Source: Podarcis cretensis (taxonomy: Eukaryota). From it: a stretch of 64,000 nucleotides of DNA. A program made the translations under genes and the position numbers. Positions 15,453 to 51,059 of the stretch are shown piece by piece. The stretch is taken from positions 50,964,001-51,028,000 of the forward strand of contig OX638153.1 in NCBI GenBank assembly GCA_951804945.1, given 5' to 3'. Every line of letters starts with the position of its first letter. The stretch's first letter is position 1. The notes under the pieces are model-generated. The model did no database searches and was not told the origin of the DNA. It saw only the letters and a list, made by a program, of their open reading frames with translations.

Positions 15453-17525
15453 ATTTACCACTTCAAAATTAAAACTATAGTTGTGTATTAGTCATCAGAT
15501 GAATGTAATGTAATCAAGAAAAACAGGGAAATATTGTAACCATAATTTTGGTAGAGCAGAGAAAATGTTCACGTAGTCCAGCACAGTCTCCAACGGCAGC
15601 CAGCAAATGCCCCCAAAATGTTCACCAGCGAGGAGAGCACGGGTCCTCCGCTGCCCACACCCTCCCTGCGCAGAAGACTTCCGCGCAGGGAGAGTAGGAG
15701 GAGACTGGGCGTCAAAGAACTTCTTTGCTGGAAGAAGTTCAAGAAACGCCCACTGACGGATTCTGCCAGCGATTGAGACAGCCACGGATGGGTGGCTGTC
15801 CGGACAGAAAGGGTTCACCCAGGTAACCCAGCCAGGTGTGGCGCCAACTTACGCACGAGCAACCCCCTAGAACCATTACAGGTGCACAGTTCAAAAAGAG
15901 TAAATATACACTCTCCTGCAGAAGTCAGTGTACAACAGGTTTTTAAGAAATGCCAGAACCAGAAACCATCAAACGTCATAATATGAACCACAGTAACTGA
16001 CTGTGTACTAAAAGCTATCCAGAAACATCCACCAATACTACCTACATGCACTTATTTTGTCTGGAAAAGAAATTCTTTGTGCTTTATTTTTGAACTGCAT
16101 TGGTAAAAATTTGCTTTAGCCTACAAGAATAGTCTAGTTGCAAATTCACATAATTATATAGATTACTAAGTGAAGTATTAAAATGACTACATTTTACAAC
16201 ATTTTTTTCTATAGAAATTTTGGTTGAAGGCTGCATGGCACTTAGCTATGACATTAAGTTTATATTGTGCTATAAATGAACCATTAACATTCAAAGATTT
16301 AAAAATGGTGAATATACCAATATACCACAGCTGCTAAAATATTCTGTTACACACACAGCAAGGTATGTTTTGTTTCTATGGTACTAGAGTTTAGTACAGA
16401 AGTGGCAACTCCTGGAAACATTTATTAAATACAGAGGCTGAGTATGAAAGGATTTCTGCTACTGCCCTGAAGTACAAAATTCTACAGTACTGAATAACCT
16501 TAATGATATGCCAAACAGCAATTGCAAGTAATTTATTCTCAAGGTTTTTATGAAAGTCATTACAGTTGCAGTATCATATCAGGTTATAATATTATTCATG
16601 GCTGTTGAGTAATCCATATGCTACTTTGTGACACATTTATTAACAAAATTTTTTCTTGCACTGGAACTAACATTTTGTTCTTCTTAAAGCATGAGTGTAA
16701 AAGATGGTATTCTCTGTATTTAAAGCAATATATTCAGGAACACCTTCATAAGCAGAATGAAGAGCATCATTGTTCCTTGCCACTACATGGGCCTAGCAAT
16801 GATTCAGGGATGTATCCAACTAAGTCATACTCATACTCACTAAAATCAGTGGGCTTAAGTTATTCATGACTAACTTGTCCATCAATTTCAATGGGTCTAC
16901 TTCAAGTATAACTCTGGCCAGATGCAATGCATGAATATTAAGGCTGTAATTTACAAAGACAACAGCACTAAAAACCTGAGTGTTAAGTGTTCATTTTGCT
17001 ATAACAATCATCTCCATACATAAATGATGGTTATCTTCAAAGCCCCCAAAAGAGCAATACTATTTGCATTCAGCAAAGATCCTATCAGGGTAAGTGTTTG
17101 GGAGATAAAGTTATAATGTTATTCATATGGAGTCCATTAAGATCTTAGGATAAACAATAGGCACAACTCAGGTTTTTTTCTGGAGTGTCATGCTAGGATC
17201 CAAAGAATCATAAAAATATTTTGCATACTTAAATAAATTTGGGCATAGGTTGCTCAAAATAGCCTCCCCAGCCTGCACTGCATGGCAAACGTCTTTTGAA
17301 ATAGGAAGTTTAAAAGCAATTTGTGATATGGCATGAAGTCTGGTGTTTGAACAAGTCCCATGGGGCACATACAACACTTGGGGCCTATTTAAAGTAGCTC
17401 TTTCAGTCATGTGTGTAGGGAACAGGAAAGGAAGAGGAACCTTTATTGCACACATGGAAGTCCCTTGCACCAGTGGAACTGCAGTGCTGGATATGACTCA
17501 GTGTATTAAAAAAGGTAATACAGAC

Positions 17526-17965
17526 TGAAGGACCACACATATCTGCTATTTGGGTCCCTGAAGCACAGATTCACACAAAGCGGCAAAACGCTCTTGCAGG
17601 TTATTAACAGGATTTTTATTTGAAGTGCATATGCAAAACAAAGGTACAGGGCGATCAGTACGCAACCTGTACACAGTAGTCAGGGTGTGCCCCTTTATAT
17701 AGATTTGCAAAATAGAATACCACCTGATCTCTTGTAAGTCACCTGATTTCTGGGAAATCGAAACTTATAATAAGTTCCTATTACCACATAAGGTCTTGGT
17801 CTTCTCTCCCTCCTTCCTGCAACCTCCCTCATCCTGGTATTACAAGAAATCCTTGTTCCTTATCTCTATCTGCCCAAGCTAGACATTCCGAGAGGCCCAT
17901 TTGCAATGTAACATTTAAGCATGTCCTTCAATAATAGAACAATTATATTGTAATATGCTCCTTCA
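17526..17965 (-). repeat. 3' LTR of provirus (440 bp)
   Basis: TATATAAA (17694-17701) and AATAAA (17615-17620) on the minus strand. It is preceded by the purine-biased AGTGAAATTGGGGAC, a weak polypurine tract. Confidence 0.93.
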
Positions 17966-20307
17966 GTCCCCAATTTCACTGTTTGGACAGATTTCGCTCA
18001 AAGAGCAGAATCTCGTTCTCCTGTGGAAGACTTCCAAAATACAAGTAGTCATCCCGTCAAATTAAATGTGGCACAGAGACCACCATGTTAGGTGAGGACA
18101 TAATCCAGGCCCAATTTTCACAATTGCTGTGCTATCAAATAAGAACAGGTTTAAACGGATACGCATAAAATAACACATATCGTCTTTCGTTACTTGTGGC
18201 ATTCAAACACTTTGTGGACGTGGTCTATGCTTTACATTGAGCTGGAAGGTCCACCAATGACTGAAAAAAAATGCTGTTCGTTTTGTTTCCTTTCCTTTTC
18301 CCGTTCCCAGGTGTCAGAGTTAGTTCTCAGGTCTCACCCTCCAATATGCACAGCAACATATCCTGGTGAATCCCCGTAGGGCTTTCATCTTGACCACGTG
18401 CTTTGTCCCTGGCAGGTTTGGGCACGTCGTGAGGGAAGTGTCCTTGCCTTTTGCCTCTCTATGGGACCGCATCATTATTATTAGTGCTGGTCTCGCACTC
18501 TAGGAAAGTTGCTCAGTTGTCCTAAGGGGACCAGAGAAAAGTCAGTGCACCTGGGATACATGCCCAATCAGAACTGAGACCAATTTGAATTTATCTTGCC
18601 CCACGGTTTTCAATTTTCCCAACCAATCTGTTAAACAAAACCATTTGAAAGGGCACATGTCCAAATAAATCAATTCAACTCTATAAGGGATCATTTCAGC
18701 TAAAGCAAAGCATATACACCTTTATTTATCTGGTGGTATTATGGATCCAAAAACATGTCCTTGGTAAAACGAGGTTGTAGCACATTTAAAAAAGAACTGG
18801 GGTTATAAAGTGAGTAAATCTAATGAGTAGATTACACAATAGCCTGAAATATTGGAAAGCATGAGAATCCTCTTAAACTGGTGTTAGCAATAAAATACTA
18901 TACTTTAAATTACACATAGACATTCCTTTCCTTTTCGTGGAAACAATACAATGTCAAACATATTTCAACATTCCAACATAAATAACATGTAATACAGAGC
19001 AAACTAATTAAACATCAGTTGCATATTTTGAGGCAATTATGAAGATTCTAGGTCTTCTTTCCAATCCTGGACCACAGTCTTGAGGTTCAAAAGTGACAAA
19101 AATGTCCTTATAATACAACTCCTCCCCCCTTTCGTTAGCACCACCCCATCTCAGTCATTATCCTTTGAAAGGAAAGAGTTCATGTGTCTTTGTTGCTGCT
19201 GCTGCTGTAGGTATTCTATAGTTTTGTAGTCAGGAGGAGTTGGGCCTAGGGTTTTCCATCACTGTCTGCAACAACATCTATAGAAGTGATATGCTGTAAG
19301 GAGGGGGGGGGCAGGGACTTAAAAGAGAGTTAGAAAGGAAGAAGGGGTAAAAAGCCCCTCCCCAAAAATGTCCTTAAGTTATCTTAGCTGCAGATAATAA
19401 AATTGTAGCATGTTAAGCATTGTATTCATTTCAACATTATCATTACATTTCCAGATAATTATTATAATTATCTGCTAAGGTTGCTTGTTTTCCTTCATTG
19501 AGTTACTCCACATATACAGACAAAAATAAAGAAATAGCTTAAAAATTACGTTTTCAGATGAAAACGGACTTGACAGAAAGACACCATATTTTGGAAAGAA
19601 CTATTATTATTAAAAAAAATACAAAGAATACACACAAAAAATATTATTAAAGCCACACATATGGACATATGACACACGTATGGACAACATGTAGCATATA
19701 AAACATACATAAATTACCAATCTTCTGGTAATTGTAAGAAGAAGTTTAGCTCGCATCCTGTTCGTTTCTTTAAGCGAAATAGAACGGCCCCATATAAATT
19801 GTTTTACGACCCTTGTCTCCATAAAAAGGGTCTTTTGACCCTCCATGCTTCACCAAGCACTAGCCTGTTAATTAAACTGTCAGGGATGTCCCTCTGACTC
19901 CCTCTTTTCCCTTGCAAGGTGAATAGCCACAGACCTATCCTTAATCCCTAAGACGGATTCTTAAAATTCGTCCTTTTCTTTTTCCATTTCCAGAGGAGAT
20001 CGTTCGGGGCGACTTATTCTGTGCGCACGTACTAAATCCTCATCCTCACGAGGAATTGATCAGATTCCTCTGCCCCCCCCCCCAATCCCTTGGGACCATC
20101 CATTACTCACCATCCTACGGTCGTATCGTTTCTCCCTAGCCGCCTTCTCCTGGTTTGCTGCTCTCCATGGCCCGGTAGACTGGGCAGAACACCCCCCTAC
20201 TTCTTCAGCCAAAAATGGCTGGTGCGCGCTTTGAAGGCGGGGGAGGGTCCCCCCACCCTCCTCAGACCAGACAGGGAAGAGCAGACCTGCCTTTGTGTCA
20301 ATTCTAG

Positions 20308-20465
20308 CAGTGGCGTAGCGTGGGTTGTCAGCACCCGGGGCAAGCCAGGTAATTTGCGCCCCCTAACCCTGGATTTGCGCCCCCTAACCCTATCCCTAAC
20401 CCTAACCCCCAGATGTTGCGCCCGGTGCGGCCGGCCCCCCCTGCACCCCCCACGCTACGCCACTG
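20308..20465. mobile_element. hAT (Tip100-like) MITE with internal telomere-like repeats, nested in the ERV leader
   Basis: Perfect 17-bp TIR CAGTGGCGTAGCGTGGG/CCCACGCTACGCCACTG and a perfect 8-bp TSD AATTCTAG (20300-07, 20466-73). Confidence 0.92.
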
Positions 20466-20484
20466 AATTCTAGTGCTCATTATT

Positions 20485-20502
20485 ATCCCGGGCGAGCCCC
20501 CA
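20485..20502 (-). promoter_or_regulatory. Primer-binding site, tRNA-Pro
   Basis: The minus strand reads TGGGGGCTCGCCCGGGAT, a 17/18 match to the MLV-type Pro PBS TGGGGGCTCGTCCGGGAT, 5 nt from the LTR end. Confidence 0.92.
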
Positions 20503-20507
20503 AGAAA

Positions 20508-20946
20508 TGAAGGACCACACATATCTGCTATTTGGGTCCCTGAAGCACAGATTCACACAAAGCGGCAAAACGCTCTTGCAGGTTATTAACAGGATTTTTA
20601 TTTGAAGTGCATATGCAAAACAAAGGTACAGGGCGATCAGTACGCAACCTGTACACAGTAGTCAGGGTGCCCCCTTTATATAGATTTGCAAAATAGAATA
20701 CCACCTGATCTCTTGTAAGTCACTTGATTTCTGGGAAATCGAAACTTATAATAAGTTCCTATTACCATATAAGGTCTTGGTCTTCTCTCCCTCCTTCCTG
20801 CAACCTCCCTCATCCTGGTATTACAAGAAATCCTTGTTCCTTATCTCTATCTGCCCAAGCTAGACATTCCGAGAGGCCCATTTGCAATGTAACATTTAAG
20901 CAAGTCCTTCAATAATAGAACAATTATATTGTAATATGCTCCTTCA
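20508..20946 (-). repeat. 5' LTR of provirus (439 bp)
   Basis: Near-identical to 17526-17965 and adjacent to the PBS. On the minus strand TATATAAA precedes AATAAA. Confidence 0.93.
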
Positions 20947-22130
20947 AGACCTTTAAGATTATGCTGTCTGACCAATGTAACATGCAGCACAGTTAAAACA
21001 GATTAATTCAGGTCTGTTACACAAAGCTGAACACATTTTGTTCCCACCCTTTTGCTCAAAGGGCAAAAATTAGTTTTGATGTAGTTTAGAACTGAAAATT
21101 TTCAGCAGTCAAAATGCTATCATGTGTTCTTACTGTTCTCCGGTTTACAATTATTACTTTGATTGTCCTCCTCACCCATTTGTCCCAAACTAACTTCCTT
21201 CTGTTTTGTAATAAAATCGCAGCACAAAAAAAGCCCTAGGGAAATTCTAAGTCAGATAACTTTCTGTCATTCATAGGAATGACCGGAGACAGCATCAGGG
21301 CAATCTTAAATTGTAATGGAAAGACAGGTGCTTCTGCACACATAGTTGCTGGGCGAGGGACATTCTTTCTATAAAGGTATGAGGAACAGCATGCCAAAGC
21401 AATACAAAATAAGATGCACAACTCTTCATGTCTCCTTCAGGATACACTGATATGTGGTCAAGGAAACCTCTCTTGCAACTTACTAGAATAGGCTGAGGTT
21501 ACATAAGACAAGGAAGATACCAAGAACATCAGTAATCACTAGAAGGCAACCAAGATGTGATTGATTATGTCAAACAAAAGCAGAGAGTAAAAAAATTAAT
21601 CTTTCCCAAGAAATATTTTGACTTTGAAAAACTGGGCTGTGCCCTTTCCTCTAGTAAACAGAGAGCGTACTTCCTAATTAGATCAAAATTTTTAGTTCTT
21701 TAGTGAGATATTTAAGATGACCAAACAAACCACAAAATCTTGACTGCCATGGTTGTTAAACTCTCTTCCAGCAACTACATTGTTTCAGGAACAATAGGTT
21801 GTAGTCAACTAATTTTTACTGAGAGTAGACCCACTGAAACTCATGGACCAAAGTTAGTCATGGTCATTGAAGTAAATTATAGTTGAATACAACCCAGTGT
21901 TAGCAGAATTTATGTGTTTTGCTGATTTTTAGGATACTTTGTATCAAACATCACTGTTCTGCTTCATCACTGATAATGCTTTGAATGGTGCTGATTTAAC
22001 TAACAACAGAAGGTAACAAAAATTGAGAATCATCAAATGAAAAAATAAAATATTGGGCTTATTATAAAAGACAACTGAGAGCTATGCTGTCTGACTCAAA
22101 ATACACTCACCAGGTTCAGTGAGTCTAAGG

Positions 22131-22390
22131 CAGGCATAGGCAAACTTGGCCCTCCAGATGTTTTCGGACTACAACTCTCATCCCTGACCACTGGTCCTGT
22201 TAGCTAGGGATTATGGGAGTTGTAGTCCCAAAACATCTGGAGGCAAGAGTTTGCCTATCCCAGCCTTCCTCAACCTGGTGTTATCTTAATATTGTTGGAC
22301 TGTAACTCCTTTTACCATTGGCTAGGTTGCCTGGGGGGGGATGGACGTTGCAACAACATCTGGACAGAGCCATGTTGAGAAAGGCTTTCA
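22131..22390. mobile_element. Two adjacent fold-back MITEs of the ACTACAACTCCC family
   Basis: CAGGCATAGGCAAACT...AGTTTGCCTATCCC followed by a more decayed copy. Confidence 0.7.
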
Positions 22391-45097: not shown

Positions 45098-47652
45098 GTT
45101 TAGAGTGTAAGAACTGTGCCTTATATAGTTTATAATATATCTGATAATATATCTGTTTGGGATTCTTGTGTGCTACTGGGCCTACTTCAAAGTATAAGAA
45201 ATGGTTTATACAGCCCTCAATGCATCAGGACCCAAATATACAGTATGTATGAGTGCCTTCTCCATTACCAGCCAACTAAGTTTAAGACTGGCAAGGGAGA
45301 GCTCTACCCACAGTCCCAGTAGTGGACCTACATTTTTGGGAGCCTGAAGCTTGAACCGCCATGTAGGCCCCTTCACAACCAGCAACTAGGTCTGTTATCT
45401 TCTTCACCAGGGTTGTTCCATGACAGATCAACACACTTTTACAAACTACTGAGCTACTGACTCACAAACCTGGAATTGTTGAAATACAGTATATACATTT
45501 TAAAAAATCAATCTGAGTCATGTGATTTAAACTGGGTCTAACAGACACAACATTTTAAAGCAATGCGGACTAAAGTCGCTTATGGGGTCCGTCTGGGATT
45601 AGGGGCTCTGAAGCTTAAGATTCATTAGTTTCATTTTTGTAGAATAACCATGGAGTATTTAATCCTCAGTAACTACATTTGAAACAGTGCTTTAAGGTGT
45701 TGTAAATATCTATTTTTAAGATTATGGTTTTACTGTTTATGCAGTTATGCTTATATGTTTGTTGTACATTGCCCTGAGCCCCTTTAGAGGAAAGTCAATT
45801 GATAAATATTTTAAATAAATTGAACTTCAAGTCTTGTGAGATACTTTATCAGGTATGTGGTTTGTTCTGCTATGCTTCAGATACAGAAACAGATGTATCT
45901 TATATCAAAAAAATACTTCAATACTACAGTAAAGATGCATTATAACCCTTCTTTTTCAGATTAACTTTACAGCATTTACAGAATCCCAAACCTATTTTTC
46001 ATTTATAGAACAATAATGACATCAATAACACGTTCAAAGTCATTCAACACAGAGATAAAACAAAAACTTGCAAGTTTATTTTTATACTTTACCAGAAGTC
46101 CTCAAGTTTTCTTCATTAAAACACTCTTCTGCTAATGGAGAATTATACCTTGAACATTCAGCTAACTATTCCCAACGCTAACTTGGAAAAAGCATTACAA
46201 TATTCTACAAGCAAGCTTTAGGTAATGTTCCCTCTGTCAGTTTCACTTTCCTCATGCAAATATTGTGTGTGACAAAGAATAAATCCTTTAATACTAAACA
46301 ACCAAGAAAATCCCCCTATTATAGTATCATTACTGGAGGTACTGATTTTTGTAGACATTAGCTAAGGGAGACATTATCATCTGGAAATTTTACTTGTCTT
46401 ATATTATCAGAGACTTAGACTAAGGTATAAAACAGAATGCAGTTGACACTCAGATAAAATTAACTGTTTTGAAGGAATCACATTCTAATCCCTAAATGCA
46501 GACTTTCTGAGTGGAACTACATAGTAAGAAAAACTTATTTTGTGGATTGTTACAAGACAAACAAAAACTTGGTCATCAAAATATGAACTTGCTTAAGTAA
46601 CCACTTTCACTCTTACAAATACTCCATTAAAGTTGATGCCCCCCCCATTTTCTGCAGAATGTTTCTTTCTCAAGCAAGCAAGTAGCTCACCACGTACATC
46701 AATAAAAATGAGCATGAGCAAAAAACTGTACTCCTGTAAAATATGGATTCTAGCCAGCTCTTATCAGATGAGCTGTTTTAATGTCTGGTTTTCCCAGCTG
46801 CCCAGAAATTGTGTGTGTAAATACACACATGTTACCTTATTTTAACACCTAGCTGTTAAAATTATCTTAAATTATAAATCTCAATTAAGTGCACAAAGGT
46901 AAATATTGATTCCCACTTTTACACACTGCACAAAAAGAAAGCATGCAGAAGCAAATGAACCTGCACAATGTAACTGCTCAGATCAGTAACTGCTCAGATC
47001 AGTAGCAGAAGTGGGATGAAATCCTTGCATTACTAACCTTTACTCCATAACTCTAGCCACAAAACTGCACAGGTTCCTCTTTTTAAGCATGTTTCATGTA
47101 AATGAACAAGCTACTACAACTTATATCCACAGCACACAGTCCTTAGTTTGCACCACACATCCAAACCACTATTTTCAATCCTCTTTTGCTGTCTATGACT
47201 CACTCATTCAGCTTTAACAGACTAGGTTTCTTAAATTACTGGGGATTACTATAACCTTCAGAGAAAGCTGGCTAGTTTGATAATGAGTGAAACGCATTTA
47301 AACAGGGTTAGGTGTAGATTAATATATTACACCTTTGTCAGAGAACTTGGATGAACAGTATTGGGGGAGTGGAACATTAAATGGAATAAAAACCTTTGCT
47401 TTGAAGGAAAGACCTTAAGAATTAACTTTTTCTCTCTTTTTTCAGGGAGATAGAATTATCGCTCTCATGATCATATCAAAGGGAAAGTCCCTATCAGATT
47501 CCTCCTTGTCTTCTCATTAAAAGCAAGCACACGATGATCTAGGGATTAGTTTTTGTACTTCTGCAAAGACACTTTGGGTATAAAACATAACAGCAAGAAA
47601 AGGAAAAAGGGGGTGGGGGGAAAGAGTATGATCAGAAGATGGTGAAACTTAC

Positions 47653-47939
47653 TTGAACCTGCCTTGGCAGTGCTGGCACTGGTCTCCTACCCAGCCTTGG
47701 TCACAGATGCAGGTAGAATTCAGACACCGGCCCGAGAAGCAGGAGGTCCTCTCGCAAGGCTTGGACTGGGAGACTTGGGCATACAGCACCAGGTACAGTA
47801 ATCCATAGAAAAGCAGCCAATTGTGCATATCCAGAAGGGTGGCGAAGCAGCAGGAGGAGCAAGAAAAAGGTCTCCAGGCACCAGAGATCACAGGAGGGCC
47901 TCCTATCCTGCGCAGGACTTTACCCAAAGGATCCAGCAT
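47653..47939 (-). CDS. ATRNL1: Attractin-like protein 1, first coding exon (signal-peptide region plus first EGF-like domain)
   Basis: Translation ...WLLFYGLLYLVLYAQVSQSKPCERTSCFSGRCLNSTCICDQGWVGDQCQHCQGRFK matches the ATRNL1 N-terminus as I recall it (LYAQVSQSKPCERTGSCFSGRCVNSTCLCDPGWVGDQCQHCQGRFK). The exon ends TTCAA|GTAAGT (phase 2 donor at 47652). The ATG at 47939 has A at -3; another in-frame ATG lies at 47957. Confidence 0.93.
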
Positions 47940-48490
47940 CTTTGCCACAGAGCACATCCGCAAGAGCCGGGACCCGGTGCGCGGAGGGGGGCGGGCGGGC
48001 CGGGAAGCGAGATTAACCCAGTTCCTTGTGCAGGTCTGACGAGGAGGAAAACAAGCCCCGCCGCTCCAGGAACATCACCCAGGTCAGGGAGAGAGCGAGT
48101 TGAACGCAGAGATGAGGAGGAGCAGAGACTGCGCGCCCCCGCCTCAAAAAAGAAGCAGCACAAAACAAGAGGCCGATGGGGAAAATGTGTCCTGAAGAGA
48201 ACTGGTTAATTCGGTCTATAGTGCGAAATAAGGGAAACCGCCAAGCCCTGCTTTCCCCTCCGTCTGTCCGCAGGCTCCTCACAACACCTCCCGTTTATCC
48301 CTCAGGTGAAACGACGCCACCAGCAGCAGCAGCAACAGCCTTCCCGCCTCTTCTTCCTCGTCGTCCTCAGGGCTCATTGCCTCCGTCTTCCATGGACTCC
48401 TTCCTGACCTTGTCGCTTCCCCTCACGACATGCCCCCGTTCAACCCACCCAGGGTAACGCTGCTGCTGCTCCTCCACCGCCGGCCGCCCC

Positions 48491-48552
<62 letters not shown>

Positions 48553-49560
48553 CCTCTCTCCGCACCCCCCTTTCTCAGTCTCCTTTGTAGCTCGCCCTCT
48601 TTAAGCAGCAACAGCCGGGCAAGGACGGCGGTGGAAGGGATGCTTCTTCCTCCCACAGGCGGGCGGCCGGCTGAGAGAAGCGCCCTCAGGATCCCCTCAG
48701 AGCCTCCCGCCCCAAGTGGGCCCCGAGTTCCTCGCCCGCCCGCCCGTCCGTCCCCGCCGAGATGGGGCGAGGGGCGCGCGCTTGCTTAGTTAAAAGCCCT
48801 CTCCTCCTGTCCCAGCTGACAGTTTGGAAGCAGCCATTTTTAAAAGGCTAATTGGTAATCTGCTTTTTTCCGAGGCGGGCGGCTCGCTGGGGCTGAATCC
48901 CTCCTCTTCCTCCCCCCCCCCCTTCCCGCTCCGCCGGGTCTGTGCAGAGCCGTCCCTCTCTCTCTGGACTGCCAGGCCCCTCCTCAGCCAGCGCGGGAGA
49001 AAGCAGGAATTCCCCGCGGCTCCGTCCCCGCCGCCTCAGGCCACTCGTTGCTGAAGCAACTGCGCCGAGAAAGGGTTTGGGGGGCTCCGAGCCCCGCTCC
49101 CAGCTGGAAGTGAAGGGAAAGAGGAGGTGCAGAGGCTTCTGCTGGCGGCAGGTTCCCTCCCTCTCCCCCCCCCCGCCCTCTCCGAAAGTTCCTGTCCCAG
49201 CCGCCCCAGAAGGAAGCCTCAGGAAGGGCAGGAGCGTCACCCCGCCGCTTTTTTGGAGGCAGCAGAAAGGATTGCAACGCCGTGTGTATCTGTTTCCCCT
49301 CCTGCTGCTGCTGCTGCTGCTTCAGCCTCCCCTACAGCTTTGCAGGGGAGTCGTGCCGAGAAACTACCACACAAAGAAGAGCTGAGCATGTGCAGCAGCG
49401 AAGCCCCCTTAAAGGCGCAGCGCATTGCTCCATTGCATCACTTTGGAGCGTGACACGAGAGAGAGGGAGAGAGAAACCGCTACTTGGTCGGGAGGGGGGC
49501 GGGAGCCGCCGCCGCCGCCGCCGCCGCTTTTCCACATGGAAGATCGGAAGAGCGTGTCAT
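47860..49560 (-). promoter_or_regulatory. CpG island / promoter and 5' UTR region of ATRNL1
   Basis: Abrupt GC- and CpG-rich block in a CpG-poor window, directly upstream of the first coding exon. It contains GC boxes, (GCC)n at ~49504-49527 and a YY1-like GCAGCCATTTT at 48830-48840. Confidence 0.85.
48494..48549. repeat. (AT)28 microsatellite inside the CpG island
   Basis: Directly visible. Confidence 0.95.
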
Positions 49561-51059
49561 CTTTTCCAACAAGGGAGAAAACAAGTTCCTGAACTTCTCA
49601 TACGCAGGCACACAAAGGGGGTGGGGGTGGGGAGAGGCAAGGCTGGGAGCTTTCTCAGAAATATTTTGCCAGCGCAGTAACTCAGGGTAATAAAATTAAA
49701 ACAAAAACAGGATGAGAAACAGCAGCACAAGGATGATTATTATTATTATTAGTCTGGTTGACTTGAGTGTACTTTGCATTTACTCCCCCCCCCCCCGGTA
49801 CTGCTCCCAATGGGAGCCTTCAACAGCTGCATTCAATGGGTGCAGTTTGCACACGTCATTGCTATATCTTCATGTCAGGGTAGGCTTCAACTTTTGAATG
49901 TCTACCTGCTGTGAAGATGCTACGTGAAGGAACAGTAGCCGCTCCACAAAAGGACAGTTCTAGGATCTCTCGCAATTCTTTTTCTGAAGAAAACCACCAG
50001 AGTACTTTCAAGAGCTACACACACTTTTAAAACTACACTCTCAGAAGTTACAAACATTTACTCTAAACAAAGGATGTAAGCATTTATTTGTTGACTGAGC
50101 ACTTTTTAAATACTGTTCTAAAATGTGTTATTTTCTACTGACTTCTTTTGACATTTCAACAATCTGCATATCAGCAGGCAGATTTTGCTCGGATTTCCTG
50201 GTCAAATGTAATCCATATTAAATCTTGTGTATGCTTACCTGAGAATGGGACCTGAATCAGATAATGAATTCATTATAGGTGATTTTAAATTGCTAAAGAG
50301 TAACAAGTTTATAAGTTAATACTGGCTTGCGTTTCCCTGGGCTGTGATCATCTTTCATGAAATAACTGACAACTGTCCTCTTGGATTAAAAAAACCCCAA
50401 GAATGCACCTTCTTAGCGCTGTACACATGCTAGGGTGCCTGCCCACCCTACACTGAGTAAGGAGAAGACCTTTTACAAGTGTGCTCAGAAAATGCAGAGG
50501 TAGCATGTAAATGAATGGAGACTGCAAACTCTGCTTCTCTTTCCAAGAGTGAACTGTTTTGATGTGAGAAGGGCAAATATCAATTTTAAGAGTGGTATTT
50601 CTGGACAGGAGTAATCAGCCACTTGCACCAGAGTAGCCTGCATTCGGATTGTTGGTTTGAGGGGGGAAATGGTTCAGATGGATGGGAGGGAGTATGTGTC
50701 TTTCTCATGCTATTAATCAGGAATCTTTGTTAAATGGCTGCAGAATGCCAATTCATAATGGGGCCACCAACAAACAAGAAGTTTCGGCAAACTGGGGAAA
50801 CCCCAAGGTATGCAGAAGTATGTTACCTCAAAAATTACCTCAGAAAGAGGCAAGCCCCTGCCCTTCAAACCCAGTTAGACTTACCTCTGAGTGGACTTGC
50901 GTAGGACTGGAAATGTTAATCTGTGGTAGCCATGGTGAAAATGAAGCAGAACTGTATTCTAGATTAGTTAATTGAGAACACTTGCGTCTGGCTCCACCAG
51001 CAACCTCTGGCCCTCAGCAGAATTCTCTCTGAGAGAATGCAGCCCTCGAAAGAAAGAAA

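Follow-up and report, generated by a model that had tools for sequence, protein, structure and literature searches.

A non-coding class I provirus of Podarcis cretensis with a core common to a larger clade of non-autonomous endogenous retroviruses

The window analysed here is a stretch of 64,000 nucleotides from Podarcis cretensis (GCA_951804945.1, contig OX638153.1, positions 50,964,001 to 51,028,000), and our subject is a 3,421-bp element on its minus strand, at 17526-20946. This is a real integrated provirus, bounded by paired long terminal repeats (LTRs) and flanked by a target-site duplication (TSD). The original prediction, made from the letters alone, took it for a young, complete but non-coding endogenous retrovirus (ERV) with a primer binding site (PBS) for tRNA-Pro. 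Its features, in window coordinates, are as follows.

17522..17525, no strand: target-site duplication AGAC, left copy (the empty site of sequencing run X11, discussed below, skips 3425 = 3421 + 4 bases)
17526..17965, minus strand: 3' LTR, 440 bp, with ends TGAAGG...CCTTCA (repeat comparison)
17966..17984, minus strand: weak polypurine tract (PPT); the short stretch preceding it resembles, by eye, that of Pro-primed coding ERVs
18016..18138, minus strand: broken env transmembrane (TM) remnant, immunosuppressive domain to first cysteine region, with stops (tblastn)
18157..19627, minus strand: non-coding core, common to a large Lys/Arg-PBS non-autonomous clade (69-77%, BLAST) and to older cousins of the same LTR family
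18370..18477, minus strand: possible conserved stem-loop within the core, weak (folding against shuffles)
19628..20022, minus strand: segment without other match in the genome (the search gave two matches, itself and locus L007, the latter for the part from 20023 on)
20023..20507, minus strand: GC-rich 5' leader, 86-95% identical to the deleted provirus L007
20105..20110, minus strand: splice-donor-like GTGAGT, kept in L007, its use predicted
20308..20465, no strand: nested 158-bp miniature inverted-repeat transposable element (MITE), with 17-bp perfect terminal inverted repeats (TIRs) and an 8-bp TSD
20485..20502, minus strand: PBS of tRNA-Pro type, 17/18 against the Pro motif
20508..20946, minus strand: 5' LTR, 439 bp, with TATA box at 20675-20682 and AATAAA at 20597-20602 (repeat comparison)
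20947..20950, no strand: target-site duplication AGAC, right copy (flank match)

The direct repeats at 17526-17965 and 20508-20946 have the predicted lengths of 440 and 439 bp and constitute an LTR pair, although instead of about three substitutions we counted four, three of them isolated and one beside a 1-bp indel. Within the LTR, TATATAAA lies at position 265 and AATAAA at position 345. The PBS begins 5 nt past the 5' LTR and agrees at 17 of 18 positions with what we take to be the Pro reference motif, which is present in exact form at six other loci of the genome, and a donor-like site at 20110 (ATG followed by GTGAGT) is retained in the related copy L007. The AGAC duplication, the Pro-type PBS, the donor and both LTR signals were thus all found as predicted. 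The interior had been described as AT-rich, which is true of the core (GC content 0.38) but not of the leader (0.52), the whole interior standing at 0.43 against 0.41 for the window. Its longest stop-free sense frame is 100 aa, and no retroviral Pfam family was detected in the six frames of the interior or in three sense frames of four related interiors (18/18), in line with the predicted lack of any open reading frame (ORF) of gag, pol or env size. A sub-threshold Pfam match to CGGC on the antisense strand was disregarded, and Rfam gave 0 matches for the element.

Two parts of the interior had escaped the original prediction, namely the nested MITE and a retroviral motif, of which none had been recognised. 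The segment 18016-18138 (about 120 nt) translates to a stop-broken piece of the immunosuppressive domain of a gamma-type env TM, which tblastn aligned with the env ORFs of the coding ERVs L073 and L077 at 48% over 50 aa; its score of 37.4 bits was reached by 0 of 60 shuffles (best local shuffle 28.9). At the DNA level the remnant is about 70% identical, over 55-70 nt, to six env-bearing loci, and the same piece is better preserved in L087 and L089, two older truncated cousins with related LTRs. The similarity to env ends sharply at the upstream edge of the remnant. The LTR pair with its TG...CA ends, the 4-bp TSD, a PBS after the 5' LTR, a PPT that is present but poor and the gamma-type env TM remnant together support the predicted assignment of the provirus to class I (gamma-like) ERVs, an assignment that appears sound for an element itself without pol.

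Searches with the LTR, the LTR-PBS junction, the interior and the leader gave no other full-length copy, and the window element is therefore the only one found in the genome. The LTR search (40 of 95 candidates scored, 48 matches, 36 loci fetched) returned mostly solo LTRs and fragments: 13 were full-length solo LTRs at 82-99% identity, ten of which had a TSD of 4 or more, and three solo LTRs were 95.7-98.6% identical to the window LTR. No PBS or interior accompanied 35 of the 36 fetched matches, and beyond the solo LTRs the remainder were fragments, L007 excepted. The junction pattern occurs twice in the 1.5-Gb genome (window element and L007), BLAST with the interior gave no match above 77% (40 of 148 candidates scored), and the leader has a single match, again L007. 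This locus, which might have passed for a second 3.2-kb copy, is in fact a 5' LTR and leader followed by an unrelated repeat and an LTR interrupted by a long interspersed nuclear element (LINE), i.e. it retains LTR, PBS and leader with the rest gone. The Pro-type inventory therefore comprises one full-length copy, one deleted copy and the two truncated cousins L087 and L089, which belong to the same LTR family and bear both core and env remnant. A longer, coding element sharing the LTR was not seen among the 36 loci fetched.

The 1.5-kb core (18157-19627), in contrast to the rest of the interior, is widespread, matching the interior of other loci at 69-77% in the same BLAST search. A query with the core of such a sister element gave 159 candidates. 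These core-bearing elements are 5.6-8.0 kb long and have different LTRs ending TG...ACA, primer sites of Lys or Arg type and 4-bp TSDs. Their junction pattern had 102 matches and 0 in the control; among the 100 listed, 15 had the spacer of coding Arg-type ERVs and 85 that of the non-coding type. Ten of the 85 had already been examined, and from the other 75 we took every fourth and the last, i.e. 20 loci. The core was found in 15 of the 20, each with at most a gag-start or env-tail remnant; 13 of these 15 had an LTR pair at 95.5-100% identity, ten of the 13 at 99% or more, and paired LTR sequence was also obtained from 10 of the 12 sister loci examined previously. By the rule for non-autonomous subfamilies in PMC10089650, the wider clade qualifies, with core, LTR pair and nothing beyond remnants at 13 of 20 loci. 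The predicted non-autonomous family thus exists one level up, in the core-sharing Lys/Arg clade, but not for the Pro type with its one full-length copy. The Lys/Arg clade is much bigger and younger than the Pro-type branch.

The ends of these sister elements can be traced to coding ERVs of the same genome. Lys-type leaders are 88-95% identical to Lys-PBS coding ERVs (8/8) and Arg-type leaders 92-94% to the coding ERV L067 (7/7), whereas the core was absent from every coding ERV examined. Since near-identical cores (95-98% between the Lys and Arg types) carry two sets of LTRs and leaders that cannot be aligned with each other, each set matching a different coding ERV, it appears that the ends were swapped between the two types. 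In a tree of the cores, from which L087 was left out as too short, the Lys rows are nested among the Arg rows and the window core is an outlier, 87% identical to L089 and 72-76% to the rest (aligned columns). A pol ORF beside the core in L025 belongs to a nested Gypsy-type LTR element with its own, identical 367-bp LTRs (L025/L041, C3:149115-154059), and long ORFs in L019, L022 and L023 are reverse transcriptase frames that we read as LINE insertions.

A helper for the window element was sought in 44 candidate loci, made up of 20 Gag loci, 6 Pro-PBS loci and 18 env-like loci; gamma-like gag copies are many in this genome (150 of 240 candidates scored). Proviruses that are Pro-primed and contain gag, pol and env sequence do exist, with LTR pairs 98.6-99.6% identical, and share their TGAAGG...CTTCA ends with the window element; in the other coding families compared, the LTR ends read TACA or AACA. 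From the common primer and end motifs we infer, at the level of lineage only, that the helper of the window branch came from the Pro-PBS lineage, with no sequence-matched parent among these loci or among the 36 LTR matches; the restriction is made because the LTR bodies score no better than shuffles and the best match of the env remnant is a His-primed family. Of the recently active helper that had been predicted, there remain coding ERVs with young LTRs, some of them Pro-primed, but not a matched one. The His-primed gamma-like family in question (L063, L064, L073, L077 and about 100 further places) consists of near-identical copies, with an identical 91-aa env stretch at more than 90 places and LTR pairs at 99.6-100%, a very recent germ-line burst in its own right. 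At L065-L067, L073, L077 and L091-L094 the primer sites, of His and Arg types, have short insertions or internal changes relative to the usual 18-mer, and these altered sites are common to coding and non-coding partners. L148, L149 and L152 represent additional types of young ERV, their interiors shortened and their LTR pairs perfect or nearly so; one of them has long gag-sized and env-sized frames only.

The insertion site was examined in eight of 24 listed sequencing runs. Organism A was represented by three samples and organisms B, C, D and F (X11) by a single one, and X10 was too shallow for a call. Reads indicate an occupied site in six of the eight runs, under four species labels, an empty site in one, and one is unclear. 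In the carrier runs the contigs of either flank stop after 26-30 bases of LTR, and most of the interior was recovered, in long contigs 97-100% identical to that of the window, for which an occupied site is the simplest reading. In X11, by contrast, one 4,087-bp contig spans the empty site, skipping 3,421 + 4 bases; that the leader is uncovered in this run was left out of account. A joint 17929-20911, seen in several runs and considered as a solo allele, falls within LTR sequence and was read as coming from paralogous LTRs. Over the pieces listed, the flanks differ from the window at 13/1,532 positions for B, 16/1,584 for C, 18/1,528 for D and 29/1,465 for F, i.e. a divergence of 0.85-1.2% for carriers and 2.0% for the empty-site run, and the LTR divergence of 0.91% (Poisson 0.25-2.3%) falls between the two. 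With the wall-lizard rate of 1.98e-9 per site per year (PMC8760935) as a proxy, the insertion is likely about 2.3 million years old (0.6-5.9). It was in place before several of the species labels separated and is not very recent, contrary to what had been predicted. X11 also has contigs 94-97.5% like the interior, one without most of the env remnant; because the site is empty in X11, this close copy is likely a second insertion elsewhere, as far as contigs of one run can tell. The window copy itself is likely inert now, because it is single and old, has a MITE 17 nt behind its PBS and has a poor PPT.

This MITE (20308-20465, 158 bp) has CCCTAA-type, telomere-like repeats between its TIRs and its 8-bp TSD copies at 20300-20307 and 20466-20473. 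Its short TIRs, high copy number, lack of an ORF and 8-bp TSD, the last of which we take to be a hAT sign, are features of hAT-type MITEs. The family is very young, with 678 candidates and all 40 of those scored at 98-100% identity. L007 is free of the MITE at the same position, it is missing from the long contigs that cover the interior in runs X5 and X7 (the joint skips 166 = 158 + 8), and among callable runs it occupies this site in organism A only; its insertion postdates the provirus. MITE-less joints in X1, X2 and X4 lie in a short, more divergent contig, which we took for the L007 paralogue. Neither the MITE nor the provirus family is described in the literature searched, outside of which lay Dfam, Repbase, supplements (possible repeat libraries) and subscription papers.

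Taken together, we consider it probable that the window holds an integrated non-coding class I element, its core common to dozens of non-coding elements, which a Pro-primed, gamma-like helper likely copied in trans some 2 million years ago and which represents an old branch of a clade likely switching helpers by recombination. Transcription and mobilisation may be read from the TSD together with the lack of ORFs, and because the element has no coding capacity mobilisation would have been in trans, as originally predicted. Following general retrovirus biology, RNA transcribed from the LTR would have been packaged by helper proteins, which would also have carried out Pro-primed reverse transcription and integration, and the ends around the core may have been exchanged by template switching among RNAs packaged together. 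More speculatively, the core could be a selfish RNA module, selected for export, dimerisation or packaging and repeatedly supplied with a new LTR, primer site and leader by the retrovirus active at the time (Pro, then Arg and Lys), i.e. a serial helper-switching satellite in the reptile germ line, but this we hold to be rather unlikely. As to RNA structure, one of 17 core windows (18370-18477) beats its shuffles (z -2.8 to -3.6), a weak signal with a single compensatory pair, and the other 16 are unremarkable.

Several observations weigh against this interpretation. The carrier junction contigs, reaching 26-30 bases into the LTR, are below the 31-base bridge rule. The core tree is unrooted and gives no direction for the swap, and the fork with the Lys rows has support of 91/94, below the starred level, and lies within an open fork. 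The env remnant is nearest to the His-primed family (L073/L077) and not to Pro-primed ones. None of the coding ERVs in the 44 loci aligns to the window LTR or leader past the 28-31-bp PBS junction, local-alignment scores of the window LTR against Pro-type LTRs are at shuffle level, and the best two leader scores (z 4.2 and 3.1, low in raw terms) belong to a Lys- and a His-primed ERV, not to a Pro-primed one; the search is limited in that 20 of the 240 Gag candidates were fetched. Finally, because there is one full-length copy, the Pro type falls short of the five copies that define a non-autonomous subfamily in PMC10089650.

One may also consider that the element is the last decayed survivor of a deletion derivative of an extinct Pro-primed gammaretrovirus, whose own eroded env or pol became the core and was later captured by Lys/Arg elements. 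The core does lie directly upstream of the env remnant, in the place of the env surface subunit (SU) and at about its length, the window branch and L089 stand farthest from the other rows in the core tree, and the many solo LTRs at 80-99% indicate a long-lived LTR family. However, upstream of the remnant we found no similarity to a fusion peptide or SU (five of six copies of the core within shuffle range, one marginal at 26.6 against a shuffle maximum of 25.8), the core has no three-base, codon-like periodicity, with 25 of 104 indels in five pairs being multiples of three, and a helper would still have been required at the last insertion, so that we give this scenario a low probability.

Much less probable still is the strong form of the original prediction, a young family that continues to spread in this lizard by means of a matched, recently active helper. 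Its single full-length copy, a site occupied in six of eight runs of four species labels (empty in one, unclear in one), the time needed for a MITE to insert and the lack of a matched helper in the 44 loci all speak against it, even though the LTRs are 99% identical, three solo LTRs reach 95.7-98.6%, young Pro-PBS coding proviruses are present and a close interior copy exists under another species label. Nested insertions are common here (the MITE, the Gypsy-type element of L025, LINE-type sequence in L022, L023 and L007), and one could imagine the core to be an independent repeat that inserted at the DNA level into unrelated proviruses, in which case its sharing would be uninformative on retroviral recombination. 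This we find hardly credible, given that, in the copies examined, the core has a constant position and orientation, directly ahead of the env tail or PPT, that homology among sister elements extends well past it, and that it has no transposon domains.

Several known systems resemble these elements in their way of working. LARD (large retrotransposon derivative) and TRIM (terminal-repeat retrotransposon in miniature) elements are LTR-bounded and non-coding, with PBS and PPT kept, and were defined mainly from plant Ty3/Ty1 derivatives; the label adds nothing here, a retroviral origin being indicated by the env remnant and the Pro PBS. Mouse VL30 (PMC4859993) is closer, being non-coding with intact LTR, PBS and PPT signals, 4-bp TSDs, many identical LTR pairs, several primer types within one family (Gly, Pro, Gln, Met, Thr) and solo LTRs far outnumbering full-length copies. 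Yet VL30 elements are 4.1-6.3 kb long, with stop-riddled gag/pol and PSF motifs, whereas the window element measures 3.4 kb and has kept a remnant of env but no trace of gag/pol; the likeness is expected to be one of mode and not of sequence, and we do not file the element as a member. ETn/MusD of the mouse and the mysTR-related non-autonomous ERVs of the deer mouse are likewise non-coding partners moved in trans, whose interiors are thought to have been replaced by non-homologous sequence via recombination and which have a conserved 3' internal region of unknown function (PMC2265474, PMC10089650). These, however, are class II (ERVK) and share that region with a coding partner, whereas here we deal with class I and a core absent from the coding ERVs examined.

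The closest parallel appears to be recKoRV of the koala, ahead of VL30, ETn and the mysTR derivatives, without membership in any of these families. There a non-coding PhER interior took the ends of KoRV and was re-mobilised with TSDs (PMC6112702), and its layout of a foreign 5' LTR, gag leader, env tail and 3' LTR around a non-coding interior is that of the Lys/Arg sister elements, which also have the ends of a coding virus and the interior of another element; for the window element only primer type and end motifs fit the Pro lineage. In the koala, a single invading virus supplied the ends of one interior, within about 50,000 years (PMC6112702), while the core described here occurs with ends from two, likely three, ERV lineages; for the window ends, no parent was found in the 44 loci.

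The window provirus is an ordinary fossil. Carried under four species labels and missing under a fifth, it can serve as a lineage marker, and the later MITE provides a second one. The sister clade, of more importance, comprises dozens of non-coding elements of very young age, their ends matching two different coding ERV groups of the same genome, a reptile counterpart of VL30, ETn and recKoRV with both partners and many copies available. It permits a sequence-level test of whether such elements persist by switching helpers, and of whether their non-coding interior is baggage or selected. Members at L024, L029, L032, L034, L090-L095 and L115-L134, with LTR pairs often at 99-100%, are a stronger subject than the window element.

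Elsewhere in the window, inverted-repeat pairs near the provirus (22108-22280, and 16877-16911 with 21814-21848) probably represent further small DNA transposons or repeat copies in inverted orientation. At 47600-49700, long open frames rich in GC are clustered on both strands, much as a CpG island or first exon would show.

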